The notes beneath the pieces are model-generated. The model was not told the origin of the DNA. It did no database searches and was given only the letters and a program-made list of their open reading frames with translations. The translations under genes were made by a program, and so were the position numbers. A DNA stretch of 64,000 bases from Flavobacteriales bacterium. Lineage in GTDB: Bacteria; Bacteroidota; Bacteroidia; Flavobacteriales; UBA1820. Positions 1-16,168 of this stretch are shown piece by piece (the stretch's first letter is position 1; each line of letters opens with the position of its first letter). The stretch is taken from contig JAGAUI010000037.1 in the NCBI GenBank assembly GCA_017620815.1, positions 3,047-67,046 on the forward strand, in the 5' to 3' direction.

Positions 1-20
1 TATGTTTTATATTCTGATGA

Positions 21-1016
21 TTAAAATGCAGTTGCTTTGAGGTTAAGCCCCATGTCTTCTGGCAGACCAAACATGATGTTCATGTTCTGAACTGCCTGTC
101 CAGAGGCTCCTTTTACTAGGTTGTCTATGACAGATGTGATAAGGAGTTTGTTGCCATGTTTAAGCAGTCCTATGACACATTTGTTGGTATTGACAGCCAT
201 TTTAAGGTGTACGTCTTTGGCGTGAGATATATGGGTAAAGGCGGCTGTACGATAAAAATCTTCATACAGTGCATAAGCCTCTTCTATCGTCCCGTCATAG
301 TCTGTGTATGCTGTGGCATATATACCACGGGTGTGATTACCGCGTATAGGCAGGAAGTAAATCTCGTGTTCAAGACCTCCGTTAAGACGAGATAGAGTCT
401 CTCCTATCTCTCCTAGATGCTGATGTGTAAATGCTTTGTAGTGGGATAGGTTTCCTTCTCTCCATGAAAAATGTGTAGTAGCTGCAGGTTTTACACCTGC
501 TCCTGTAGAGCCTGTGATAGCATTTACATGGATGTCGCTTTTAAGAAGACCAGCAGAGGCTAGTGGTGCTAATGCCAACTGTATAGCTGTAGCAAAACAA
601 CCGGGATTGGCTATGTCGTGAGCTCCTACTATCTTGGCACGATTTACTTCTGGAAGTCCATAGACAAATTTACGTCCCATAAAACGAGAGTCTGCCTTGA
701 GACGGAATTCGTTGGAGAGGTCTATGATGCGTGTATGCTCACACACAGGGTGTTCCTTGAGAAAGTTTCCTGTATCACCGTGGGCGGTACACATAAACAG
801 TACGTCCACCGTAGGGTTAATCTCATCTGTAAAACACATATCTGTAACACCTAGAAGGTCATAGTGTATGCTATGAAGTGGTTTTCCTGCACTAGAAGTA
901 GAATATACAAAATCTACTTTTACCATAGGGTGTCCCATCACTATTCGTAATAGTTCGCCGGCGGTGTATCCAGCACCTCCTACTATGCCTATCTTGATTT
1001 TTTTCTGTGTGTCCAT
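21..1016 (-). CDS. argC: N-acetyl-gamma-glutamyl-phosphate reductase
   Basis: 331 aa. N-terminal Rossmann segment KIGIVGGAGYTAGELLR and active-site segment ANPGCFATA. Lies in a cluster with argG. Confidence 0.93.
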   Translation of the reverse strand: MDTQKKIKIGIVGGAGYTAGELLRIVMGHPMVKVDFVYSTSSAGKPLHSIHYDLLGVTDMCFTDEINPTVDVLFMCTAHGDTGNFLKEHPVCEHTRIIDLSNEFRLKADSRFMGRKFVYGLPEVNRAKIVGAHDIANPGCFATAIQLALAPLASAGLLKSDIHVNAITGSTGAGVKPAATTHFSWREGNLSHYKAFTHQHLGEIGETLSRLNGGLEHEIYFLPIRGNHTRGIYATAYTDYDGTIEEAYALYEDFYRTAAFTHISHAKDVHLKMAVNTNKCVIGLLKHGNKLLITSVIDNLVKGASGQAVQNMNIMFGLPEDMGLNLKATAF

Positions 1017-1040
1017 ATCTTATGTGTTTATAATTTCGTT

Positions 1041-1457
1041 TTATTTATTGTCGTTTTTTATAGTTGGAGGGAGGATAAGGGGGAGACGTTTTTTCTTCCA
1101 TGCCACTATCCCTCCTTCTAAGTTATATACAGTGTATCCGCCTTGTGTGGAGAGTAGTATGGCGGCATGAGAGCTACGCACACCACCATGGCAATACACA
1201 GCAAAAAGACGTTTGCCTTGTAGGGAGTCTATACTTTGCCAGAATGCTATCTCATCACTCACGGGGATATTTATAGCTCCTTCTATATGCCCGGAATTAT
1301 ACTCTTTGGCTGTGCGTACATCTATAAGGTGTACCTTCCCGCAACTATTTATAAATGATTCAAACTGCCGTGGGGTCATATCATAGTAACTCTTGCTACA
1401 CGATGTAACTATGATAGCACATAAAACTATGAGTATGTATTTCCCCAGTGATGGCAT
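1041..1457 (-). CDS. Rhodanese-like sulfurtransferase lipoprotein
   Basis: 138 aa. Signal peptide with a lipobox (IVTSC). Rhodanese fold motifs HLIDVRTAKEYNSGHIEGAINIP and active-site loop CHGGVRS. Confidence 0.85.
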   Translation of the reverse strand: MPSLGKYILIVLCAIIVTSCSKSYYDMTPRQFESFINSCGKVHLIDVRTAKEYNSGHIEGAINIPVSDEIAFWQSIDSLQGKRLFAVYCHGGVRSSHAAILLSTQGGYTVYNLEGGIVAWKKKRLPLILPPTIKNDNK

Positions 1458-1467
1458 AAGGAAAAAT

Positions 1468-2667
1468 TTATTTTTTGTCTTGGTTTACGTGATAGTATAT
1501 TTTGTTGGAAAGAGAAAGAACCTTGATAAATCCTTTGGCATCTTCACCATCAAATGCTTTGTTTTCCTCACCATATGCACCGAAACCGCTGTTCATAAGG
1601 TCGTGGTCTGATGTGATACCTTCCACCATAAACGAATATGGACGCAATATAACGGTAACAGTACCACTTACACATTCCTGTGAAGATTTAAGCAGAGCTT
1701 CCATATCACGCATAACAGGGTCTAGATATTGACCTTCGTGCATAAGCATTCCATAGAAATTACCCACCTGTTCTTTCCAGTAGGCCTGCCATTTGGTCTG
1801 TGTGTGTTTTTCAAGCATGTGGTGAGCCTTGATGATAACCATAGCTGCTGCCGCTTCAAATCCTACACGACCCTTGATACCTATGATGGTATCTCCCACG
1901 TGCATATCACGACCCACACCATAACGCGAAGCTATCTCTTCTAGTTTGGTTATTACAGATAGAGGACTCATCTTTTCACCGTTAAGAGCTACAGGTTCGC
2001 CTTTTTCAAATTCTATGCTCACTGTGCGAGGCTCTTTTTCTACCACTTGTGAAGGGTATGCTTCCTCGGGTAGGGTGCTGTGAGAATGTAGAGTCTCTAC
2101 TCCTCCTACCGATGTACCCCATATACCCTTGTTTATAGAGTATTTGGATTTTTCCCATGATGCTTGAGCTCCGTGTTTTTTAAGGTAGTCTATCTCTTCC
2201 TGACGTGAAAGAGCCATATCACGTATAGGAGTAATGATTTCTATCTCTGGTGCTAGAGTTTGGAATATCATATCAAAACGTACTTGGTCGTTACCAGCAC
2301 CTGTGCTACCATGAGCAACGGCAGTAGCTCCTATTTCTTTGGCATAAGATATGATAGCTATAGCTTGGAATACACGTTCTGAACTTACAGATATAGGGTA
2401 TGTGTTTCCTCTCAACACATTGCCAAATATCATATAACGCACAGCCTTTTCATAAAATTCCTGTGTGATGTCTATATTTTTATGGCTCACAGCTCCTAGT
2501 GCCAATGCCTTTTCTGTAACTGTGTCTAGTTCGCTGGAAGGGAAACCGCCAGTGTTTACAAGTGCGGTGTGAACCTCATAACCTTTGTCTTCTTTGAGGT
2601 ATTTTACGCAGAAGGAAGTATCTAGACCTCCGCTGAAGGCTACCAATACTTTTTTATTGTTTTCCAT
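1468..2667 (-). CDS. argG: Argininosuccinate synthase
   Basis: 399 aa. N-terminal ATP-pyrophosphatase motif AFSGGLDTS and full-length resemblance to ArgG. Confidence 0.95.
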   Translation of the reverse strand: MENNKKVLVAFSGGLDTSFCVKYLKEDKGYEVHTALVNTGGFPSSELDTVTEKALALGAVSHKNIDITQEFYEKAVRYMIFGNVLRGNTYPISVSSERVFQAIAIISYAKEIGATAVAHGSTGAGNDQVRFDMIFQTLAPEIEIITPIRDMALSRQEEIDYLKKHGAQASWEKSKYSINKGIWGTSVGGVETLHSHSTLPEEAYPSQVVEKEPRTVSIEFEKGEPVALNGEKMSPLSVITKLEEIASRYGVGRDMHVGDTIIGIKGRVGFEAAAAMVIIKAHHMLEKHTQTKWQAYWKEQVGNFYGMLMHEGQYLDPVMRDMEALLKSSQECVSGTVTVILRPYSFMVEGITSDHDLMNSGFGAYGEENKAFDGEDAKGFIKVLSLSNKIYYHVNQDKK

Positions 2668-2712
2668 TATATCTATGTTTTATTTATTATTCTCTATGAG
2701 TGTGAAAAAATA

Positions 2713-3330
2713 CTATTTGGAGCTAAGGGTTTCTAGATGGAATGTATCTATAACGCCATCATCTACCTTGACATGAGAGAGGATTTCTTTATCATCATGT
2801 GAAGCAGGGTCATACAGCATACCATAGCATAGACACATACGGCGGTTGTTACGTGATAGAACGTCATAGTTCACACAGCCTTTGCAGCCTTCCCAGAAGG
2901 TATCATCGGTAGTGAGTTCAGAAAAGGTAACAGGAGTGTAACCTATCTCTGTGTTTAGTTTCATAACTGGCAGCGAAGTGGTGATACTGAATATCTTGGA
3001 CGTAGCAAATTTGGTGCGGGCTAGATAGAATGTGCCTAGTTTTATGCGTTTGGCTAGACCAGACATACGGAATTTGGGTACCACGATAAGTCCCGATGTA
3101 GCTACATATTTCTCGTGTTCCCAAGTCTCTATATAACTGAATCCAGCAAACTCTCCATCTTCTGTAAGAGCTATTACAGCCTTGCCAGCACGTATTTTAT
3201 CTTCTATGTATGAAGGGTGGCGTTTGGCAATACCAGTGCCACGCAAATATGCTGCTTTCTCTATTTCATCACAGATGGTCTGTGCATATTTAAGGTGTGA
3301 TAGGTCTGCGACCAATACGTTTATTTTCAT
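2713..3330 (-). CDS. GNAT-family N-acetyltransferase, first gene of the arg cluster
   Basis: 205 aa. GNAT motif-A-like segment VVPKFRMSGLAKRI (RxxGxA). Its position upstream of argG matches Bacteroidetes arg clusters. Confidence 0.7.
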   Translation of the reverse strand: MKINVLVADLSHLKYAQTICDEIEKAAYLRGTGIAKRHPSYIEDKIRAGKAVIALTEDGEFAGFSYIETWEHEKYVATSGLIVVPKFRMSGLAKRIKLGTFYLARTKFATSKIFSITTSLPVMKLNTEIGYTPVTFSELTTDDTFWEGCKGCVNYDVLSRNNRRMCLCYGMLYDPASHDDKEILSHVKVDDGVIDTFHLETLSSK

Positions 3331-3579
3331 TTCTTATGATATAAAAATTCAGATAATTTTATCTCATTTTCCAAAAGTGTAAAGGTATGAAAAATGAATG
3401 TTATAATAATTAAAATATACAGGGAAAAAATGATGTAATACCTCCCTTTAATTAAGGTATGGGGTGTGGACTATCAAGGCGTTATCACGCCTGCATCGGG
3501 AGAGAAAATATGTAGTGTGTCCTGTTTTCATTTGTCCATAGAGGATTACAGAGTGCAAAGGTAAAAAAAAGAATGAAAT

Positions 3580-3611
3580 GCGGCTCAAAAAATATAGATT
3601 TTTTGAGCCGC
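3580..3611 (-). terminator. Stem-loop terminator downstream of the 615-aa Fe-S membrane protein gene
   Basis: Perfect 13-bp arms gcggctcaaaaaa/ttttttgagccgc with a 6-nt loop, 22 nt after the stop at 3633. A/T runs on both sides. Confidence 0.7.
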
Positions 3612-3632
3612 ACCTATCTTATTCTTACAATG

Positions 3633-5480
3633 TTATGCTATGGTGTGTGCTGTAGATTTCTCTATGCTTTCCTCACATGGAGAAGAAAGATTTTTTTCCA
3701 TAGCCTCTACCACTACTTGTGCTATGTCTTTGACTGCCGAATGTCCTTCACTTACCCCTTCAAATGTCTTTTTACATAGTGGACATGCAGTAGCCAGTAC
3801 GTCTGGAGAAGAGGCTGTGAGTTGCTGGAAGGCATCCACTGTTACTGCACGACGGCTTGATTCGCTAAGTGCGGTATTGGCTAGGGAACCTCCACAGCAT
3901 AGAGCTTTCTTGCGGTCTATAGCCGATGGTATAGCTGTAAGGTGAGCCACAGCATCTATCACACGGCGAGGTTCTTTATATACTTTACTGCCTCTGCCTA
4001 AATCACAAGGGTCGTGATATACCACATTGAGTGAAGATTTTTCTACTTTTATACGTCCAGAAGATATAAGACGGTCTATGTATTGGCTGTGGTGGAGTAT
4101 TTCAACGTCTTGTAGAGAGTATTGTTCACAGAATACTTTGTAGCATATAGGACACGATGTAACGAGTGTTTTGGCTCCGCTACGGCGAATGATTTCTGTG
4201 TTTTTCATTATCATAGCACGAGCCGCATCTATCTGTCCTGTAAGTAGCATAGGACGACCACAGCATATAGTGCTAGAAGCATCCATATGCAGGTATTTAT
4301 CCCCACTATTACGCAATATGGTTTTCATAGCGTTTAATATAGATGGCATATTGCGTGTCATGCAACCAGAAAAATACAACACATCGGCCTGTCCTATATC
4401 CATAGCTGGCAGATATGAATAATCACTTTGGTCTTTGGGGGCTTTCAGTTCACGTACGTTCTGTCTTAAACGTATGGAGTCTATACCTACGGGACAAGCC
4501 TGCACACAGCGTCCGCACATAAAGCAGTTTTCGGCACTTTTAAGGGCTGCAGGGTCGCCTTCGCGTAGCTGACGTATGAAATAGACGGCAGTGTCTTTGG
4601 GTTTACGAGCTGCCGATGATATTTGACAGGCATCTATACATATACCGCATCGTGAGCAGGAGTAGATAGCTGCCGTAGCCACACCATCGCCCTTTTTACG
4701 AGAACGAATACCTGCGTTTTTAAATAGTATAAGTAGTGCTTCGGTAGGGATATGCATATATCGTGAGCCCGGCAGTGCAAAGAAAAACAATCCCAATGCT
4801 ATAGAGTATGCCCACCAGAACCCTCGTCCATAGTCTTCGGGGACTATACCTACCAGATACCCTACGGTATTGGTAAGGAAACTGCCTCCTGCTATTTCGG
4901 CAGTGTGGCTTTCGGCAAGTAGTCGCAATGGGAATATGAGCCATAGGGTGTAGAGTGCTATGCGGTCGGCATTTTTAAGACGTGTGGTACGACGCATACC
5001 CATGGCTCGGCTGTTAAACCTTTTATAGAGTGCCATACCTATACCTATGAGTACGAGCAGTAGGAAAAAGTCCATCATGAAAAAGAAAAACGCTCCCTGC
5101 ATACTGTGTTCTGTCTCTTTCATGAAATAACGGAAGAATATAGGGAAATATGGCAGGTTAAGACGGTGTGGAGCATATAGTTTGACTTCTATGTGTCCCA
5201 GTACTATAATCATAAACCAACCGAATGCTATACTCATGTGCATAAATCCCAGTATCTTGTTACGGCGGAATATGCGTACGTGTAGCAGACATTCACATAT
5301 TATATCTTTAATAGATACAAATATCCTCCATGAAAACAGACTCCTGAAAAATCTCTTGCGGTCATCTGTGGGGAGGTCATATATCACTTTGCCAGCAGCT
5401 ACTGCCAGATATATTATTATAAATAGCAGTCCAATGGTAAACGGCAATACAAATGGGTCAAAACTGAATCTTTCTTCCAC
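3633..5480 (-). CDS. Fused membrane (NarI/HdrE/DsrM-like) + HdrD/DsrK-like Fe-S protein
   Basis: 615 aa. About 6 N-terminal TM helices with conserved His residues (GFMHMS, LGHIEV). Two ferredoxin motifs (CSRCGICIDAC, CFMCGRCVQACP). Two CCG-type cysteine-rich domains (ICCGRP...CPICYK; DPCDLGR...CCGGS...CPLCKK). Confidence 0.8.
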   Translation of the reverse strand: MEERFSFDPFVLPFTIGLLFIIIYLAVAAGKVIYDLPTDDRKRFFRSLFSWRIFVSIKDIICECLLHVRIFRRNKILGFMHMSIAFGWFMIIVLGHIEVKLYAPHRLNLPYFPIFFRYFMKETEHSMQGAFFFFMMDFFLLLVLIGIGMALYKRFNSRAMGMRRTTRLKNADRIALYTLWLIFPLRLLAESHTAEIAGGSFLTNTVGYLVGIVPEDYGRGFWWAYSIALGLFFFALPGSRYMHIPTEALLILFKNAGIRSRKKGDGVATAAIYSCSRCGICIDACQISSAARKPKDTAVYFIRQLREGDPAALKSAENCFMCGRCVQACPVGIDSIRLRQNVRELKAPKDQSDYSYLPAMDIGQADVLYFSGCMTRNMPSILNAMKTILRNSGDKYLHMDASSTICCGRPMLLTGQIDAARAMIMKNTEIIRRSGAKTLVTSCPICYKVFCEQYSLQDVEILHHSQYIDRLISSGRIKVEKSSLNVVYHDPCDLGRGSKVYKEPRRVIDAVAHLTAIPSAIDRKKALCCGGSLANTALSESSRRAVTVDAFQQLTASSPDVLATACPLCKKTFEGVSEGHSAVKDIAQVVVEAMEKNLSSPCEESIEKSTAHTIA

Positions 5481-5565
5481 GATGGATGTTTTTTATAAGA
5501 AATTGATATAGATAGGAATAGGATAGTTACACTGCATAGGGTGATTTACAATGGCAGTGTTACCT

Positions 5566-5928
5566 TTAAAAAATGTCGCGTGTAACAGCAGGGGTCTTGC
5601 GCCCATCATCTAGAGCTCGGTATAGTTTGCTCCATAGACTACGCAGGCTTATACCGCGAGGACACAGCATTTGGCAACGTCCACACAACATACATTTTTT
5701 AAGGTCTTCTTTCAGGTTTTCTGTCTGCCCGTTGAGTATCATCAGTTGGATTTTACGGGGATTGTAGGCAGTGAAATGCCCAGCAGTACACCCGGCAGTG
5801 CAAGTCCCACAACCTATGCAAGTGGCAAAACTCTTCTCACGACGAGCCATCTTGCGGGCTAGTGAGAGGTCGGCTTCGTCTAGGTTGAGACGGTTGCTGC
5901 GAGTTATTCCGTATCCGAAATCTATCAT
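5566..5928 (-). CDS. Small 2x[4Fe-4S] ferredoxin-like protein (HdrC/QmoC N-terminal-like)
   Basis: 120 aa. Motifs CIGCGTCTAGC and CMLCGRCQMLCP. There is a 4-nt start/stop overlap with the upstream gene. Confidence 0.75.
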   Translation of the reverse strand: MIDFGYGITRSNRLNLDEADLSLARKMARREKSFATCIGCGTCTAGCTAGHFTAYNPRKIQLMILNGQTENLKEDLKKCMLCGRCQMLCPRGISLRSLWSKLYRALDDGRKTPAVTRDIF

Positions 5929-6950
5929 TTTTTACGTTTTTTCAAGTATTCATCTATTCGTATAGCCGCACTGCGAGCATCGGCTATAGTCTGTGGTATG
6001 GTCTTGGGGCCTGTGCAAGTTCCTGCCAGGAATACACCATCTACTTCGGTCTCGTTACCGCGGGAGAATATATCCACAGGTGTGAGGAATCCTTCTTTAT
6101 TACAGTGAAGTCCTAGCATAGTGGCGATACGGGCAGTATCACTAGCAGGACGCATACCTGCCATAAGAACGAGCATATCTACCGAAAGATTAAGTGTCTG
6201 CCCAGCTAGAGTATCTTCTACTTTAAGGATTACGCTTTTGTCCATCTTTTCGGCAGCTTCACATAGGCGACCTCTTATGAAACGCACACCGTATAGTTTC
6301 TGGGCATTGAAGTACATATCCTCATATGGCAGTTCAAACATTCGCAAGTCCATATAGAAACAATACACTTGTGCATCGGGGTAGAGCTGTTTAATTTCTG
6401 ATGCTTGTTTAACGGCCGTAACGCAACATACCTTTGAACAATAACGGTTGCCTACTTTTTCATCTCGCGAACCTACACAATGTACAAATCCTATGCGGCG
6501 AGGTATGTCTCCGCTACGGGTAAGGACTTTCCCAGAAGAGAACATGGATTCTAGGTCGGCCTGTGTATAGACATTGTCATAGATTCCATAGCCGTATTCT
6601 TCCTTGAGGTGTGCATCAAATAACGAAAACCCACTTGCCACCAGTAGAGCATCGGCATGTATAATGCCTAGAGATTCTGTCCCCACACCTATACGGCCGT
6701 CTTTCATCTTTACCAGCGAAGTTATTCTCTGGTCATAGTGTATGGTTACGCCTTCTCCTAATGGGCGTCTTACATCATCTATGAGGCGTGATGCACGACG
6801 AGAGTCTGGAAATAACCTATCCCATGAAGCTACATTACCTCCATCGTATGTCTTTTTTTCTATGATGGTAACGTTATATCCTATGTCTTTGAGTCTGGCG
6901 GCAGCAGTGAGACCTGCTACACCTGCTCCTATTATGACTACATTTTTCAT
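5925..6950 (-). CDS. HdrA/QmoA-like FAD-dependent oxidoreductase
   Basis: 341 aa. FAD-binding motif VVIIGAGVAGLTAA and the HdrA-type cysteine motif CSKVCC. Confidence 0.75.
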   Translation of the reverse strand: MKNVVIIGAGVAGLTAAARLKDIGYNVTIIEKKTYDGGNVASWDRLFPDSRRASRLIDDVRRPLGEGVTIHYDQRITSLVKMKDGRIGVGTESLGIIHADALLVASGFSLFDAHLKEEYGYGIYDNVYTQADLESMFSSGKVLTRSGDIPRRIGFVHCVGSRDEKVGNRYCSKVCCVTAVKQASEIKQLYPDAQVYCFYMDLRMFELPYEDMYFNAQKLYGVRFIRGRLCEAAEKMDKSVILKVEDTLAGQTLNLSVDMLVLMAGMRPASDTARIATMLGLHCNKEGFLTPVDIFSRGNETEVDGVFLAGTCTGPKTIPQTIADARSAAIRIDEYLKKRKK

Positions 6951-12933: not shown

Positions 12934-14805
12934 ATGAATTATCTATCGGTAGAGAACCTTTCCAAATCATACGGAATACGCACACTTTTCAGTGATGTTA
13001 CATTTGGTATATCACAAGGGGAAAAGATAGCCTTTGTAGCCAAAAATGGCAGTGGTAAATCAACGCTTATGCGTATATTATGTGGACGTGAGGACGCCGA
13101 TAACGGCACTGTTACATTCCGCCGAGGTGTAAGTGTGGGATTCCTCTCCCAAGACTATGATTTCCCTCCCACAGCGACCATAGAGGATATAATCTATGGT
13201 GCCGATACCCCTATGTTGCGTACCATACGACGTTATGAGAGAGCTGTACATGATAGTAATTATGCTCATGATTTCCAGTCTGCATATGAAGAGATGGAAA
13301 GTCAAGGGGCGTGGGAGTATGAGTTGAGAATACAGACCGTTCTATCCCAACTCAAACTAGACAACATATCGGTTACATGTGCCCAGATGTCGGGAGGACA
13401 GTTACGGCGTCTAGCTCTAGCACAGGTGCTTATAGAAGCTCCCGATTTCCTCATACTAGATGAACCTACCAACCATCTTGACCTGCCTATGGTAGAATGG
13501 CTAGAGAATTATCTCTCTGGTGAAAAAATAACACTCTTTATGGTTACCCACGACCGTTATTTTCTAGATAGAGTATGTACCGATATTCTAGAACTGGACG
13601 CAGGTAAGCTGTGGCGTTATCACGGGAACTATTCGTATTTTATGGAGAAACGTGCCGAACGCTATGCCGCTGTTACTGCCGAGGCCGAAAAAGCACGTAA
13701 CCTCATGCGGCGTGAAGCAGAATGGATACGCCGTCAGCCACAGGCACGTGGCACCAAGGCAAAGGCTCGTATAGATTCATTTGAAGTGTTACGACAGAAG
13801 GCTTCGTTCCGTATAGATGAACGTGTACTAGAGCTGGGTATAAATATGGAGCGACTGGGTAGCAAAGTCGTTGAGATGCATTCGGTGAGCAAGAGTTGGG
13901 AGGATATGAAGATACTAGATAAGTTTGATTATGTCTTCCGCCGTGGCGAACGCGTGGGTATAGTAGGAGATAATGGCAGTGGCAAATCTACATTTTTACG
14001 AGTGGCTAGTGGTGAAGAAGCTCCCGATAGTGGCAAAGTGGTAATAGGAGATACGGTGGTATTTGGGCATTATCGTCAGGAAGGGATAGAGATAAATCCC
14101 AGAGAAAAAGTGATAGAAGTCCTTAAAAAATATGGCGAATATATCCCACTTGCCAAAGGACGTCGTCTTTCGGCCGAACAACTCCTAGAACGCTTCCTCT
14201 TTACCCGTTCACAGCAGTGGGATTATGTGGAGAAATTATCGGGAGGAGAGCGTCGTCGCTTGTATCTATGTACCGTTCTTATCTCCAATCCCAATTTCCT
14301 CATACTGGACGAGCCTACCAACGACCTAGACATTATAACTCTTACTGTACTGGAAGAATTCCTCATAGAGTATCCGGGTGTGCTACTTATAGTGAGTCAC
14401 GACCGTTATTTTATGGACAAGATAGTTGACCATTTATTTGTATTTGAGGGAGGGGGAAAAATAAAGGATTTTCCCGGCACATATACCGAATACCGCATAT
14501 GGCATAAATCCCAAAAAGCAGTGGATACAGCCACTGCCATAGAGGATAAAAAACCATGTGTAGAAAAACCTCGTGAAAAGAAAAATCGTCTTTCATATAA
14601 AGAGCAGAAAGAGTTTGATGCTCTGGAAGAGGAGATACCTGCACTGGAGAGTGAGAAAAAAGAGATAGAATCTATATTTGCCAGTGGGGAGGAACTATCA
14701 CCCAGCAGGGTAAATGCTCTCTCTGCCCGTATGGAAGAAATTCTTTCTATGCTGGAAGAGAAAGAAGAGAGATGGATAGAGCTCTCTATGATGATAGAGG
14801 ATTAA
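12934..14805 (+). CDS. ABC-F family ATPase (Uup-like, two ABC domains plus C-terminal coiled coil)
   Basis: Two Walker A motifs (GKNGSGKST, GDNGSGKST) and two signature motifs (MSGGQ, LSGGE). No TM domain. Charged coiled-coil tail. I prefer the start at MNYLSVENL. Confidence 0.9.
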   Translation: MNYLSVENLSKSYGIRTLFSDVTFGISQGEKIAFVAKNGSGKSTLMRILCGREDADNGTVTFRRGVSVGFLSQDYDFPPTATIEDIIYGADTPMLRTIRRYERAVHDSNYAHDFQSAYEEMESQGAWEYELRIQTVLSQLKLDNISVTCAQMSGGQLRRLALAQVLIEAPDFLILDEPTNHLDLPMVEWLENYLSGEKITLFMVTHDRYFLDRVCTDILELDAGKLWRYHGNYSYFMEKRAERYAAVTAEAEKARNLMRREAEWIRRQPQARGTKAKARIDSFEVLRQKASFRIDERVLELGINMERLGSKVVEMHSVSKSWEDMKILDKFDYVFRRGERVGIVGDNGSGKSTFLRVASGEEAPDSGKVVIGDTVVFGHYRQEGIEINPREKVIEVLKKYGEYIPLAKGRRLSAEQLLERFLFTRSQQWDYVEKLSGGERRRLYLCTVLISNPNFLILDEPTNDLDIITLTVLEEFLIEYPGVLLIVSHDRYFMDKIVDHLFVFEGGGKIKDFPGTYTEYRIWHKSQKAVDTATAIEDKKPCVEKPREKKNRLSYKEQKEFDALEEEIPALESEKKEIESIFASGEELSPSRVNALSARMEEILSMLEEKEERWIELSMMIED

Positions 14806-15242
14806 AGGAAAGGGATTTTTTTCTTTATCCACCACACTGCTGCTACTATGGTTAGAGCTACTGCTGCCCATAGGTATATTTTATGTGAGGTATTAGGATG
14901 TGTTTTTTCATTTATATTCCCTGTGTGGCTGATGTATCTAGCAGATGTATCTATGGCGACGTTCATAGTGGTATCACAGGAAGTGGTACTGCTGTTTTCT
15001 TTAATGTCATAATGACGGGTTATGACACGTGTGGTACGTCCTGCAGTATCAATTTCTCGTATTTCTTCTTCTATGACATGCGTGCTAGAAAGTGAACATA
15101 GCGTGGAGTTTATATGACCTTTGACTATGTGTAGATTTCTTTTTTCTATAATCTCCCCTTCCGATTTTACATTTATGTTTTTCTTTATCCCACAGGCTCC
15201 TACTATCATAAGAACTGTGATGTATATTACTGTTTTTCTCAT
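14802..15242 (-). CDS. Small protein with an N-terminal lipoprotein signal and a C-terminal TM anchor (unimolecular-spanin-like architecture)
   Basis: 146 aa. Lipobox IVGAC at the N-terminus. C-terminal TM IYLWAAVALTIVAAVWWIKKK. There is a 4-nt start overlap with the upstream gene. Confidence 0.55.
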   Translation of the reverse strand: MRKTVIYITVLMIVGACGIKKNINVKSEGEIIEKRNLHIVKGHINSTLCSLSSTHVIEEEIREIDTAGRTTRVITRHYDIKENSSTTSCDTTMNVAIDTSARYISHTGNINEKTHPNTSHKIYLWAAVALTIVAAVWWIKKKIPFL

Positions 15243-15649
15243 CTTATCTCTATATAATTAAGTTCTTTTTTACGGGAGCATTCGGTGAGGAGTTTTACTA
15301 TTTTATCTTCGGTAGTTTGGCTGTTTTTTATGATGCCCTCTCCTGCTTTTTCTCCCACTAGGATGCATCCGCTGGTATCGTTGGCTGTGTTGCCACTGTG
15401 TATGCGTATGCCAGTGAATTGTGGTACGTCTTCCACAAGAGGCAGTGTGCGGCGGAATTTGGGGGAGTAAGAAAGCGTTATCTTGTATGTCCCGCATGGT
15501 ATAGCTGTATGGTGAGCTATCTTGGGTGAGGAGGAGAGGTCTCTTTCTGTATCTTCCAGACTATGGCATATAAATGTGCCGTGAGAGTTCATTATTACAC
15601 CTTCGCTGTAGAGAGGTGTTTTATGTGTTCGGGTGAGTATTAACTTCAT
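15239..15649 (-). CDS. DUF5675-like protein (phage-associated, possible cell-wall enzyme)
   Basis: 136 aa. Motifs IPCGTYKITL...VPQFTGIRIHSGNTANDTSGCILVGE match my recollection of the roughly 130-aa bacterial/viral DUF5675 family. Confidence 0.55.
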   Translation of the reverse strand: MKLILTRTHKTPLYSEGVIMNSHGTFICHSLEDTERDLSSSPKIAHHTAIPCGTYKITLSYSPKFRRTLPLVEDVPQFTGIRIHSGNTANDTSGCILVGEKAGEGIIKNSQTTEDKIVKLLTECSRKKELNYIEIR

Positions 15650-16025
15650 TTGTTTTTATTGTTTGGCGGAAGGGGCAGTCTGCATCACCACACGAGGTGC
15701 TTTCTATGCGTGAACGCAATAACTGTGTTTCCAGTTCTATTTTATAAAGTTTTTTGGATAGAGTGTTTATAAGGGCTCGTTTTTCATTGAGTTCTTCCTG
15801 CATGCGGTCCACCTCGCTATATGCCTCGCGGATGCTCTCTTTGAGGAAGAGTATTTGTTCGCGGGAGGCTTCTTGGAGGCGGGCGGTGTTTTCTGTATTT
15901 ACCGTTTCTATGTCTTCGCGGCGGCGGAATATAGAACTGAATATCACAGGCAGTAGCTCCCTTAATCCCAATGCTCCTATGAGAGTTATTACCATCTGTC
16001 CTATGCTTATACCATCATTTGTCAT
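15621..16025 (-). CDS. Small membrane protein with a C-terminal coiled coil (holin-like position)
   Basis: N-terminal TM ISIGQMVITLIGALGLRELLPVIF followed by a heptad-rich E/L/K/R segment. The start was set at M18 because a TATATTTG -7 box overlaps the first ATG at 16076. An alternative start is M5 at 16064. Confidence 0.5.
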   Translation of the reverse strand: MTNDGISIGQMVITLIGALGLRELLPVIFSSIFRRREDIETVNTENTARLQEASREQILFLKESIREAYSEVDRMQEELNEKRALINTLSKKLYKIELETQLLRSRIESTSCGDADCPFRQTIKTNEVNTHPNT

Positions 16026-16073
16026 TTTTGCACATTTATTTTCCTTCTTGTCTACTAGATGCATGGTTTCATA

Positions 16074-16081
16074 CAAATATA
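16074..16081 (-). promoter_or_regulatory. -7 promoter box (TATATTTG) for the three-gene lysis-like cassette
   Basis: Matches TAnnTTTG on the minus strand and overlaps the first in-frame ATG of the 151-aa ORF. Confidence 0.45.
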
Positions 16082-16168
16082 ATAATCAAAAAGGAAATAA
16101 AAAAGCATTTTGGGTAGAAATAGATGTTAAAATTTGTGTAAACGAGATAATGTGCTTATTTTTACCAA

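Follow-up and report, generated by a model that had tools for sequence, protein, structure and literature searches.

The type 10 secretion system (T10SS) is the closest known kind of system to the locus described here. T10SS derive from phage lysis cassettes and comprise a holin/hydrolase core, with spanins being optional (PMC13284979; PMC10847048); examples are Serratia ChiWXYZ, the Yersinia entomophaga lysis cassette, and the Salmonella ChiH/ChiP and TtsA systems. The systems that these papers describe are from Serratia, Yersinia, Salmonella and Clostridioides only (PMC13284979; PMC10847048), whereas our cassette lies in a member of the Bacteroidota. A second point of reference is the lysis module of crAss-like phages (Crassvirales), which consists of a DUF6549-like “lysis regulatory protein”, a “lysis regulatory protein/holin” (phrog_6664) and a DUF5675 “L,D-carboxypeptidase/transpeptidase”. 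We found no experimental study of crAss-like lysis genes in the literature, and their annotation is by inference only. Nor did the literature yield a characterised member of any of the three protein families discussed below.

The cassette consists of three minus-strand ORFs, in the order p1, p2 (DUF5675) and p3, within the window, that is, the whole 64,000-nt stretch of DNA that was analysed. Like a T10SS, it joins a chromosomal phage-derived gene in the holin position to a signal-less wall hydrolase and a spanin-type gene, all kept by the host outside any prophage. Unlike in T10SS, p1, p2 and p3 match no characterised family of holins, hydrolases or spanins in Pfam, NCBIfam or PHROGs. In addition, the hydrolase is an uncharacterised DUF5675 protein instead of an M15/M23 endopeptidase or muramidase, the spanin-type gene is unimolecular instead of two-component, and neither a cargo gene nor a dedicated activator adjoins the cassette. 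The hydrolase, which belongs to the defining core of T10SS, is moreover dispensable in one sub-clade. With respect to the crAss-like module, the DUF5675 enzyme is a shared component (approximately 40% identity). Those modules differ in carrying an N-terminal-TM DUF6549 protein, not a lipoprotein with a C-terminal TM helix, and in sitting among late structural genes, whereas the window cassette stands alone in a bacterial chromosome.

Consecutive genes overlap, by 29 nt for p1/p2 (15621-15649) and by 4 nt for p2/p3 (15239-15242), and the ORFs lie behind one promoter box, as originally predicted. The promoter block (16074..16104, minus strand), read in the sequence, comprises a -33-like TTTT element (16104-16101), a 19-nt spacer and the -7 box TATATTTG (16081-16074), which is of the TAnnTTTG type. 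The Bacteroidota sigma-A promoter pattern is TTTG-N19-TAnnTTTG; six of the eight aligned species have TTTG at the -33-like element, where the window has TTTT, and a sigma-70 scan of the block gave no match. The 30-nt block TTTGATATTTCCTTTTTGATTATTATATTTG is near-invariant in the window and seven other loci (8/8 species), whereas the surrounding intergenic DNA is variable. On either side, the cassette is bordered by an ABC-F ATPase gene and a TetR/FabH pair. Among the genes up to about 5 kb away in each direction, none has a recorded phage Pfam family, which bears out the claim that no other phage genes adjoin the cassette. We found no integrase beside it, no tRNA gene within the window, and no cargo gene, prophage, tailocin or gene-transfer-agent cluster either beside it or elsewhere in the window. 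The G+C content of the cassette is like that of the neighbouring genes.

p1 (15621..16025, minus strand) encodes a 134-aa bitopic membrane protein in the holin position. Read from a TTG codon, the ORF (15621-16076) would give 151 aa; this TTG, at 16076, falls within the -7 box, and the start was set by the orthologues, all of which keep the ATG at 16025 (MTNDG...). Its short acidic N-terminus precedes a single TM segment (15927..15995, minus strand; aa 11-33, with a Kyte-Doolittle 19-aa window maximum of 1.91); beyond this come an RRR stretch, about 100 aa of coiled-coil domain and, near the C-terminus, a C-x4-C-x2-R motif, in agreement with the expected N-terminal TM helix plus coiled coil. 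Within the clade, TM residues R22, E23 and P26 are invariant. Across 22 p1-like sequences, the flanks of the TM segment contain 9 Lys/Arg residues on the N-terminal side vs 87 on the C-terminal side; an N-out/C-in topology, with a cytoplasmic coiled coil, is therefore predicted. A role for p1 as an i-spanin was considered and is ruled out by this predicted topology.

The p1 family is small, with only 18 representatives among 1.84 billion proteins, and its sole invariant columns are the two cysteines of the C-x4-C motif (C112-x4-C117-x2-R120; 15666..15692, minus strand, from the family alignment). Fourteen of the 18 members match phrog_32423 (best E 5.5e-8). Profile comparison with the crAss-like “lysis regulatory protein/holin” group (hhalign probability 91%, E 9.5e-7) indicates remote homology between p1 and the gene that lies immediately upstream of DUF5675 in crAss-like phages. 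Both share an N-terminal TM segment, a basic stretch (RRK in the homologues), a coiled coil and the C-x4-C-x2-R tail (SICTDLTCQLRK in the crAss-like proteins). p1 itself gave no match to the known holin families of Pfam, NCBIfam or PHROGs, and its single TM segment, bearing an Arg-Glu pair, counts against reading it as a holin. A counterpart in topology is the Mu gp25 “releasin” (DUF2730), a small protein oriented N-out/C-in, whose N-terminal TM segment is combined with a C-terminal domain in the cytoplasm and whose gene lies near that of the endolysin in lysis regions; proteins of this type are paired with many endolysin types, one of which has weak L,D-transpeptidase similarity (PMC9239132). 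The topology predicted for p1 is the same. Only 2 of the 18 family members match Pfam DUF2730, and marginally so (E 0.03, which does not reach the cut-off). The target of Mu gp25 is a SAR endolysin, unlike p2, which has no membrane segment.

p2 (15239..15649, minus strand) encodes a 136-aa putative endolysin, possibly a Cys/His peptidoglycan peptidase. Its assignment to DUF5675 was confirmed by Pfam (E 4.4e-29, 101 bits against a cut-off of 26.7) and is accompanied by matches to phrog_1501 (E 4e-21), by about 40% identity to the crAss-like proteins annotated as L,D-carboxypeptidase/transpeptidase and, from an AF2 model with a pLDDT of 95.4, by BFVD matches to phage DUF5675 proteins down to E 1e-16. 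Hydropathy analysis gave no signal peptide or TM segment in p2, so a partner would be needed for its export. The candidate catalytic segment (15365..15400, minus strand) reads H84-S-G86-N ... T-S93-G94-C95, and H84, G86, G94 and C95 are invariant across 35 diverse DUF5675 proteins. The YkuD-like pattern of the original prediction held up in part. DUF5675 shares with the YkuD (MEROPS C82)/Tlde1 superfamily the invariant His ... Ser-Gly-Cys-hydrophobic motif and recurrent weak profile matches, all below Pfam cut-offs (Tlde1_dom in 16 of the 35 proteins, best 5.8e-4; YkuD in 5 of 35), and phage annotators also use the term “C82-like”, as does a 2026 preprint according to which the function of DUF5675 is still unknown. 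In contrast, the His-Cys spacing is 11 residues vs the 14-17 intervening residues of the published motif (PMC9638812). Despite the pLDDT-95 model, a Foldseek search of the PDB, where Tlde1a structures are deposited (PMC9638812), returned no solved L,D-transpeptidase, Csd6 or Tlde1a (best E 0.49), and a profile search of the PDB was also empty. YkuD-type chemistry for p2 is thus weakly supported, by the invariant His and Cys and by the sub-threshold Tlde1 and YkuD profiles.

p3 (14802..15242, minus strand), the last gene of the cassette, encodes a predicted 146-aa lipoprotein with a C-terminal TM anchor. As foreseen, it carries both a lipobox (I-V-G-A-C; 15192..15206, minus strand; Cys17) and a C-terminal TM helix (14826..14879, minus strand; aa 122-139, within a hydrophobic helix at aa 121-140; hydropathy 1.79) followed by KKKIPFL. 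No acidic surface-export signal follows Cys17. In Bacteroidota lipoproteins, a basic stretch at +2 to +5 means no surface export, and the GIKKN residues after Cys17 therefore suggest that p3 is not exported to the surface. The nine orthologues are only 20-59% identical to one another; conserved among them are the lipobox Cys (9/9), the motif E-x-D-T-x-G-R...R-x-Y in the centre, a Pro preceding the TM segment, and the C-terminal TM helix with its basic tail, the hydrophobic segment being found in every orthologue analysed. In metagenome scaffold L006, p3 is frame-shifted by a 37-bp deletion. AF2, run on the single sequence (pLDDT 53), places a beta hairpin (54-81) between a signal helix and a C-terminal helix (119-142), the last being the best-scoring part of the model.

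By architecture and position, p3 matches a unimolecular spanin, as had been proposed. Kongari et al. 2018 (PMC6139136) characterise u-spanins by an N-terminal lipoprotein signal with a lipobox Cys, a C-terminal TM domain, a place at the end of the cassette behind the endolysin and the lack of a predicted periplasmic coiled coil. p3 shares these features with u-spanins of the T1 gp11 type. Unlike them, p3 has no sequence similarity to annotated spanin families (its search of PHROGs gave no significant match), contains two periplasmic cysteines in the window, whereas 0/58 catalogued u-spanins have any (PMC6139136), and is host-encoded, its spanin function being putative. No homology of p3 to DUF6549 (hhalign probability 1.7%) or to phage lipobox/TM proteins was detectable.

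The phage-type character assigned to this orphan cassette is supported by the contexts in which its relatives occur. DUF5675 adjoins “lysis regulatory protein/holin” genes in crAss-like lysis cassettes. The remote homologue of p1 lies directly upstream of DUF5675 in cr85_1, cr128_1 and cr111_1, with an overlap in cr85_1 and cr111_1 like that of p1 and p2 in the window; in PhiCrAssBcn2 one gene intervenes. Other settings of DUF5675 are a prophage end, where it is flanked by Phage_holin_4_1 and a TM protein, a podovirus, in which three small genes precede it, Dulem virus 42, where the adjacent gene carries a holin annotation, and microviruses of 6.4 kb. Moreover, p1-like genes precede five endolysin families in phage and prophage contigs; in phage-like contigs they stand directly, or one small gene, before Peptidase_M23, a phrog_873 endolysin, Peptidase_M15_3 and Amidase_3. 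In three of these contigs (L106, L118 and L121), the gene after the endolysin encodes a lipobox and a C-terminal TM helix, as p3 does. The gene order p1-like/endolysin/lipobox-TM thus recurs in phage-like contigs, with other endolysin families.

The nearest genomes are MAGs that bear the label Flavobacteriales rather than Bacteroidales. In nine lineages the cassette occupies the same ABC-F | TetR-FabH junction. Contigs with the same protein show an identical locus, and synteny with the housekeeping flanks extends to lineages whose DUF5675 is 84% and 53% identical and to six species representatives. Other species keep all three ORFs intact at the orthologous locus, and the DUF5675 proteins of the clade form one group in an NJ tree computed without bootstrap. 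Between the window and L013, dN/dS was 0.15 for p1, 0.07 for p2 and 0.21 for p3, with 0.06-0.07 for the flanking genes. In one sub-clade of four species, DUF5675 was cleanly lost, and p1 and p3 were retained with no endolysin between them; both are under purifying selection there (dN/dS of 0.10-0.25 for p1 and 0.20-0.39 for p3 in species pairs with unsaturated dS). Overall, dN/dS ranged from 0.07 to 0.39 at dS of 0.15-1.4, saturated-dS pairs being left out. Since the p1-p3 pair persists where DUF5675 was lost, it represents the selected core. The endolysin-free sub-clade is not predicted by a plain lysis-module reading: in these four species lysis by the cassette alone cannot be the function, unless a hydrolase is encoded elsewhere.

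These data bear on whether the cassette is a relic or in use, a choice that the original prediction had left open. That it is the last, functionless piece of a degraded prophage accords with the phage origin of the genes, the frame-shifted p3 of L006 and the loss of DUF5675 from one sub-clade. However, the ORFs are intact, the overlaps preserved and the promoter near-invariant in lineages whose flanking ABC-F protein is just 68-73% identical; dN/dS values are low, the composition is ameliorated, and flanking phage genes, integrase and tRNA are all absent. Independent recent insertions are contradicted by the single DUF5675 branch and the identical insertion site. An inert remnant is thus largely refuted by the conservation data, and we consider it very unlikely. 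Even less credible, in our judgement, is a toxin-immunity pair, wherein DUF5675 would be a Tlde1-like effector sent into rival cells and p3 a periplasmic immunity lipoprotein. The sub-threshold Tlde1_dom matches and the lipoprotein gene that directly follows the enzyme gene with a 4-nt overlap would fit such a pair, but the flanks contain no T6SS or other delivery genes or domains, the putative immunity gene and p1 are kept where the putative toxin is absent, the same gene order occurs with unrelated endolysins in phage contigs, and a C-terminal TM anchor is unexpected for an immunity protein.

That p1 and p3 persist and stay under purifying selection where the enzyme is missing is also what a non-lytic envelope module would produce. 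Here p1, as an inner-membrane anchor with its coiled coil in the cytoplasm, and p3, as a lipoprotein bridging the periplasm, would be repurposed as an envelope-spanning pair for homeostasis, wall remodelling or division, with DUF5675 as an optional L,D-carboxypeptidase-like trimmer and neither release nor death. The absence of a cargo gene, the conserved TetR regulator and FabH (lipid synthesis) neighbours, and a weak ZapG-like match of the crAss-like p1 homologue (E 0.003) point in the same direction. Nevertheless, the p1 relatives that we found outside the clade with informative contexts all lie in phage or prophage clusters, mostly beside an endolysin, and the rarity of the family is unlike a housekeeping envelope factor. 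Periplasmic housekeeping by a DUF5675 protein that lacks an export signal would still require a holin-like step. We therefore regard this module as a rather unlikely explanation. The homology of the genes to lysis genes of phages infecting related hosts would also suit phage defence or interference, either by premature suicide on infection (abortive infection) or by disturbing the lysis timing of crAss-like phages with homologous proteins. p3 evolves fast, as expected of a protein in conflict, and the promoter varies little, its invariant spacer being a possible operator. On the other hand, PADLOC gave no match, sensor and other defence genes are absent beside the cassette, its chromosomal position is stable across species, unlike that of a variable defence island, and dN/dS stays below 0.4 in pairs with unsaturated dS, with no sign of positive selection. 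Defence is accordingly improbable.

Taken together, the fixed synteny in nine lineages and the purifying selection favour domestication over a prophage relic. We propose, as the probable explanation, that a phage-derived lysis cassette was captured once by the ancestor of an animal-gut Flavobacteriales clade, has been vertically inherited at one site, and became a domesticated holin-like/endolysin/spanin-like host operon comparable to type 10 secretion, a form of programmed lysis or release. From the observed gene layout, one Bacteroidota-type promoter would give a tricistronic, translationally coupled mRNA. p1 would enter the inner membrane N-out/C-in and oligomerise via its cytoplasmic coiled coil and C-x4-C tail; as its homology and position suggest, it may let the signal-less DUF5675 protein reach the periplasm, through hole formation or release. 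DUF5675, with its conserved residues and phage context, would then cut peptidoglycan peptide stems via His84 and Cys95. p3 has the architecture to span the periplasm, with its N-terminal lipid anchor and its C-terminal TM helix in the inner membrane, and may disrupt or fuse the outer membrane after local wall removal. Given its vertical inheritance at one chromosomal site, the cassette appears to be used by the host, and the result would be either that part of the population lyses or that the envelope opens locally, releasing some cargo (proteins, DNA or vesicles).

The cassette consists of three overlapping minus-strand open reading frames behind a TATATTTG box (16081-16074, minus strand), as the original prediction had described. 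ORF 1 (15621-16076) opens with a TTG that falls within the box, and from the ATG at 16025 it encodes the 134-aa p1; this ATG is backed as the start of p1 by gene calls on identical metagenome contigs and by all orthologues. ORF 2, the DUF5675 gene p2 (15239-15649, minus strand), overlaps ORF 1 by 29 nt, and ORF 3, p3 (14802-15242, minus strand), overlaps the end of DUF5675 by 4 nt. To one side of the cassette are ABC-F, YicC, Gmk and NadD; TetR, FabH and a variable gene lie to the other. The exact DUF5675 protein of the window occurs on 23 metagenome contigs, and the order FabH, TetR, p1-p2-p3, ABC-F, YicC, Gmk, NadD, FabD is kept in the ten contigs shown, as far as each extends. At 14802-14805 the stop codon of ABC-F, whose gene runs convergently on the plus strand and ends at 14805, overlaps that of p3, which ends at 14802 on the minus strand, leaving neither intergenic space nor a terminator between the two transcription units; the same holds for the compared loci L003 and L013, and L017 has a 37-nt gap at this junction.

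No phage genes adjoin the cassette, in agreement with the earlier reading: no phage Pfam family was recorded among the flanking genes over ~5 kb on either side, and terminase, portal, capsid and protease queries gave no tblastn match elsewhere in the 64-kb window. There is no tRNA gene in the window, and the G+C content of the cassette (0.38-0.46) is like that of neighbouring genes. None of the usual marks of a prophage (flanking phage genes, integration, tRNA, atypical composition) was found at the locus.

p1 carries a single hydrophobic segment (~aa 11-33) followed by a coiled-coil-like region, in line with the predicted N-terminal TM helix plus coiled coil. Weak Pfam matches of p1 are spread over many unrelated coiled-coil families, and DUF5798, Fez1, DegS and the like were discarded as the family of p1 because they are generic coiled-coil noise, with different members matching different families. 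The p1 family is tiny: a search of 1.84 billion proteins gave 18 representatives (E up to 1e-3). Fourteen of them match phrog_32423, a phage family without assigned function (best E 5.5e-8), and two match phrog_6664 (E up to 0.019). Moreover, profile-profile comparison aligned p1 over 84 columns (probability 91%, E 9.5e-7) with a group of crAss-like phage proteins from cr85_1, cr128_1 and cr111_1, encoded directly upstream of DUF5675, and PhiCrAssBcn2, encoded one gene away. Common to both sides are the N-terminal TM segment, an RRK stretch, the coiled coil and a C-x4-C-x2-R tail.

A p1-like gene precedes DUF5675, M23, phrog_873, M15_3 or Amidase_3, either immediately or with one small gene in between; this constant position ahead of five unrelated endolysin families is as expected of a holin-type lysis partner. 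p1 is holin-like in being a small TM protein of a type encoded beside endolysins in phage cassettes, and it gave no match to a Pfam or NCBIfam holin family. The other p1-like genes all sit in phage-like surroundings. In three of these loci (L103-L105) the order is terminase, ClpP, capsid-like, portal, DUF6712, p1-like, Peptidase_M23 and DUF6549, then host genes; L107, on a 2.6-Mb contig, has the same head-gene cluster ending in the p1-like gene, and L119 has a p1-like gene near an SU10-type capsid gene. The order p1-like, endolysin, lipobox/C-terminal-TM gene recurs with other endolysin families: L106 encodes a p1-like protein, a phrog_873 endolysin and a 149-aa lipobox/C-terminal-TM protein; L118 a p1-like protein, a 49-aa TM protein, Peptidase_M15_3 and a lipobox/C-terminal-TM protein; and L121 a p1-like protein, Amidase_3 and a lipobox/C-terminal-TM protein, the latter two loci with an integrase nearby. 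No match to p1, to p3 or to two distant relatives of p1 came from a tblastn search of 50,697 phage records, short coiled-coil or low-complexity queries probably being filtered, and an IMG/VR scan with patterns from alignment A2 matched 252 places, none of which was confirmed.

The head-gene cluster of L103-L105 and L107 (positions 1-6400 in each) is compact, comprising Terminase_6N, ClpP, capsid-like, portal and DUF6712 genes, and abuts host genes, with no tail genes in the 5-6 kb available. It may represent a satellite or a gene-transfer-agent-like element, or just the end of a prophage. In L107 no endolysin comes after the p1-like gene.

Over 22 p1-like sequences, Lys and Arg number 9 in the N-terminal flank of the TM segment and 87 in the C-terminal flank, and the N-termini are short (2-10 aa) and acidic, so that an N-out/C-in topology with a cytoplasmic coiled coil is predicted. 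The predicted topology rules out p1 as an Rz-type i-spanin, for which the best Rz-like PHROG match has E 0.74. It resembles the topology of the Mu gp25 releasin (PMC9239132); unlike the Mu system, DUF5675 has no SAR or TM segment. Assignment of p1 to the releasin family itself (DUF2730) was rejected, the match (E 0.03) lying below the cut-off and involving only 2 of the 18 members.

p2 matches Pfam DUF5675 (PF18925) with 101.1 bits against a cut-off of 26.7 (E 4.4e-29; profile positions 2-113 of 114), a profile matched by 35/35 aligned relatives, and has no hydrophobic, SAR or TM segment. Part of p2 had been likened to the His...Ser-x-Gly-Cys pattern of YkuD-type enzymes. H84, G86, G94 and C95 are invariant in 35 diverse DUF5675 proteins; measured against the L,D-transpeptidase motif H-x(14-17)-[S/T]-H-G-C-h (PMC9638812), p2 has H84 and S93-G94-C95-I96, but its His-Cys spacing is 11 and Ser, not His, precedes Gly-Cys. 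The Tlde1_dom profile (PF10908) gave E 0.017 and 16 bits with p2, under the cut-off of 30.1; it matched 16/35 DUF5675 relatives (best 5.8e-4) and YkuD (PF03734) matched 5/35 (best 0.031), all below threshold. With H84 and C95 invariant and weak matches recurring, the likeness stands as a reasonable remote-homology lead, but it does not establish membership of the L,D-transpeptidase/carboxypeptidase superfamily (YkuD/Tlde1, MEROPS C82).

The AF2 model of p2 is confident (pLDDT 95.4). Foldseek of this model against 350,542 PDB chains found no solved-structure match (best E 0.49, no L,D-transpeptidase among the matches), and sequence (phmmer) and profile searches of DUF5675 against the PDB returned nothing relevant. 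A 2026 preprint, which terms the domain 'C82-like' and describes its function as still unknown, reports partial structural similarity for DUF5675 by another method. In BFVD the model matches phage DUF5675 proteins, including domains within 868-1251-aa proteins such as one of Ralstonia phage RP31. DUF5675 is also found in 6.4-kb ssDNA microviruses with only seven genes (Dulem virus 260, Microviridae; L111, 3650-4042). The fold thus appears to exist as an independent gene and also as one domain within very large phage proteins.

DUF5675 relatives were detected by tblastn in 116 phage records, mostly of crAss-like phages, with identity up to ~46%. The crAss-like copies are annotated 'L,D-carboxypeptidase/transpeptidase', and a crAss-like DUF5675 gene sits beside genes annotated 'lysis regulatory protein' and 'lysis regulatory protein/holin'. 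Elsewhere, at a prophage end after a tail-fibre gene, a Phage_holin_4_1 gene and a TM protein gene enclose a copy with 52% identity; a podovirus copy follows three small genes and precedes the terminase gene; and the copy of Dulem virus 42 adjoins a gene annotated holin. The p1-like/DUF5675 pair is a conserved putative lysis module of crAss-like phages, and DUF5675 is a candidate new endolysin class. A reverse-transcriptase gene stands upstream of lysis genes in two unrelated phage contexts: a 'retron-type' gene one gene upstream of DUF5675 in crAss-like phage cr55_1 (L115, 357-1682), and an RVT_1 gene directly upstream of the p1-like gene in L118 (2313-3731).

p3 begins with a lipoprotein signal (MRKTVIYITVLMIVGAC) whose lipobox, VGAC, ends in Cys17, invariant in nine orthologues. 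At its C-terminus is a TM segment (aa 121-140, hydropathy 1.79) followed by KKK, which AF2 renders as a helix (119-142), and every p3 orthologue analysed has a C-terminal hydrophobic segment. The predicted combination of lipobox and C-terminal TM anchor is therefore upheld. Across orthologues, p3 is only 20-59% identical to the window protein, and what persists through this divergence is the lipobox Cys, the E-x-D-T-x-G-R...R-x-Y motif in the centre, the Pro preceding the TM segment, and the C-terminal TM segment together with its basic tail. A single-sequence AF2 model of low confidence (mean pLDDT 53) contains only a beta hairpin (54-64/70-81) and no helix between the anchors. p3 is the last gene of the cassette and adjoins the putative endolysin gene, and a lipobox/C-terminal-TM gene follows the endolysin in the phage-like contigs L106, L118 and L121. 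In its predicted architecture and its position, p3 agrees with a unimolecular spanin of the T1 gp11 type in the definition of Kongari et al. (PMC6139136).

Searches of PHROG, Pfam and NCBIfam gave no significant match for p3. Homology to the phage lipobox/TM proteins was rejected, as only the signal peptide aligned in hhalign (probability 7.9%). Because spanin families are extremely diverse (PMC6139136), p3 may act as a spanin despite this lack of family similarity. Homology of p3 to DUF6549 was likewise rejected, none being detectable. The crAss-like 'lysis regulatory protein' belongs with Pfam DUF6549/phrog_14010 (L001, 2093-2671; L002, 1690-2292; L103, 5799-6374). This crAss-like protein is ~200 aa long; most of the copies examined begin with a TM segment, and a PPKKFFLFRWFQKKH motif is conserved close to the C-terminal end. 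The DUF6549 gene of L103 follows the endolysin gene, the position that p3 occupies in the window cassette; our literature search found no paper mentioning DUF6549.

By its flanking ABC-F protein, the locus is closest to a 'Flavobacteriales bacterium' MAG from water-buffalo caecum (91% identity), followed at 68-73% by six more gut MAG species, among them ones named UBA1820 and Candidatus Merdimorpha stercoravium; beyond these, identity is 53% or less. As the nearest relatives are Flavobacteriales/UBA1820-type gut MAGs, the organism is not a member of the Bacteroidales. The cassette occupies the same junction in loci whose DUF5675 is 84% (L013-L016) and 53% (L017) identical to that of the window, and in 6/6 related species representatives (L022-L027). 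Every lineage compared has p1, which measures 131-135 aa in the species representatives, and p3, of 146-153 aa. The window lineage, L013, L022 and L025/L017 have DUF5675 as well, and L023, L024, L026 and L027 lack it; in these four, the stop codon of p1 and the start codon of p3 share 4 nt. In a neighbour-joining tree of ABC-F, the four species without DUF5675 form one clade (bootstrap 100) nested among DUF5675-bearing lineages, and in a neighbour-joining tree without bootstrap the DUF5675 proteins of these Flavobacteriales cluster together among phage and metagenome relatives. The simplest history would be a single ancestral capture of the triad, then a single clean loss of the enzyme gene.

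dN/dS values (Nei-Gojobori) between the window and L013 were 0.15 for p1, 0.07 for p2 and 0.21 for p3, next to 0.06-0.07 for the flanking TetR, FabH and ABC-F. Among the DUF5675-less species, p1 and p3 gave 0.10 and 0.20 between L023 and L024, and 0.25 and 0.39 between L026 and L027. One metagenome scaffold of the same strain group (L006, ~2370; window ~15051-15087) has a 37-bp frame-shifting deletion within p3 together with a split TetR gene; the p3 deletion may be an assembly artefact, as the scaffold contains Ns, or a real inactivated variant.

In the window, L013 and L022-L027, a 30-nt block 5' of p1 (TTTGATATTTCCTTTTTGATTATTATATTTG; window 16074-16104, minus strand) is nearly invariant across eight species, and the remaining intergenic DNA is variable. 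The block fits TTTG-N19-TAnnTTTG, the promoter pattern of Bacteroidota. In the eight species, conservation extends beyond the -33 and -7 elements to the 19 nt of spacer that separate them, which suggests a possible overlapping operator for some regulator. The divergent TetR, whose gene always adjoins the cassette, is one candidate. In L023, L024, L026 and L027, the divergent TetR gene has its start codon within a perfect inverted repeat, GAATGA-ACAT-TCATTC, which lies ~150 nt upstream of p1; L022 has a diverged copy and the window lineage none. The GAATGAACATTCATTC palindrome was dropped as a TetR operator for the cassette because it overlaps the TetR start codon and is missing in the window lineage.

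The anatomy of the locus, together with the phage relatives of p1 and DUF5675, supports the view that this is an orphan cassette of phage origin, with a protein in the holin position, a putative endolysin and a u-spanin-like protein. One rival is an inert remnant, which the original prediction had entertained as a prophage relic. The fixed junction across species, the purifying selection and the conserved promoter block contradict such a decaying relic and indicate that the host uses the module. A role in phage defence or phage interference is a second rival, for which PADLOC returned no match. The sub-threshold Tlde1_dom matches bring to mind a Tlde1-like toxin/immunity pair; there are no delivery genes in the flanks, and the putative immunity gene would have been kept in species that lack the putative toxin.

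Within the lysis-type reading, p1 would let DUF5675 cross the inner membrane, and p3 would then act on the outer membrane. Since DUF5675 has no export signal, p1 is the obvious candidate for this step, unless an unlinked factor carries it out. In the close relatives compared, p1 and p3 are kept throughout and DUF5675 is lost in four species, which points either to the membrane pair as what selection maintains or to a further hydrolase gene at another locus. A rival account gives p1 and p3 a role in the envelope that involves no lysis. We also raise, as a speculation that we consider rather unlikely to hold, that p1 and p3 might form an endolysin-independent device bridging or fusing the inner and outer membranes, taken from phages by gut Flavobacteriales for regulated vesiculation or protein/DNA release in the manner of type 10 secretion systems (T10SS), with the p1 family (phrog_32423/phrog_6664; single TM, N-out/C-in, cytoplasmic coiled coil, C-x4-C tail) supplying the trigger of lysis, of holin or releasin type, in crAss-like phages and in many further phages of Bacteroidota.

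The closest described kind is the T10SS or programmed-lysis cassette. T10SSs have a holin/hydrolase core with optional spanins and are lytic or non-lytic depending on the system (PMC13284979; PMC10847048); those in the T10SS literature that we consulted belong to Serratia, Yersinia, Salmonella and Clostridioides, with no mention of Bacteroidota. Like them, the present locus has a chromosomal pair of phage origin, outside a prophage, with housekeeping flanks and a location fixed across species, its 'holin' being one by position only. In contrast to T10SSs, no linked cargo gene or dedicated regulator lies among the ABC-F, YicC, Gmk, NadD and TetR, FabH neighbours, p1 has no homology to any characterised holin, and one sub-clade keeps p1 and p3 without a hydrolase.

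Databases already annotate DUF5675 as a putative lysin of crAss-like phages, and the domestication of lysis cassettes is itself known. Judged from sequence comparison, four points appear to be new: p1 is tied by remote homology to phrog_32423 and the crAss-like 'holin' genes; the triad recurs among phages of Bacteroidota, its endolysin being interchangeable; gut Flavobacteriales have inherited such a cassette vertically throughout a clade; and a variant without the endolysin occurs naturally. A literature search found no published account of any of the four. The natural loss of the enzyme, with p1 and p3 kept, offers a ready comparison of the roles of membrane components and wall hydrolase. 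Domesticated phage lysis cassettes of the T10SS type are an emerging release route for large toxins and enzymes, and a vertically inherited cassette in gut Flavobacteriales would extend the T10SS principle to Bacteroidota through entirely different protein families.
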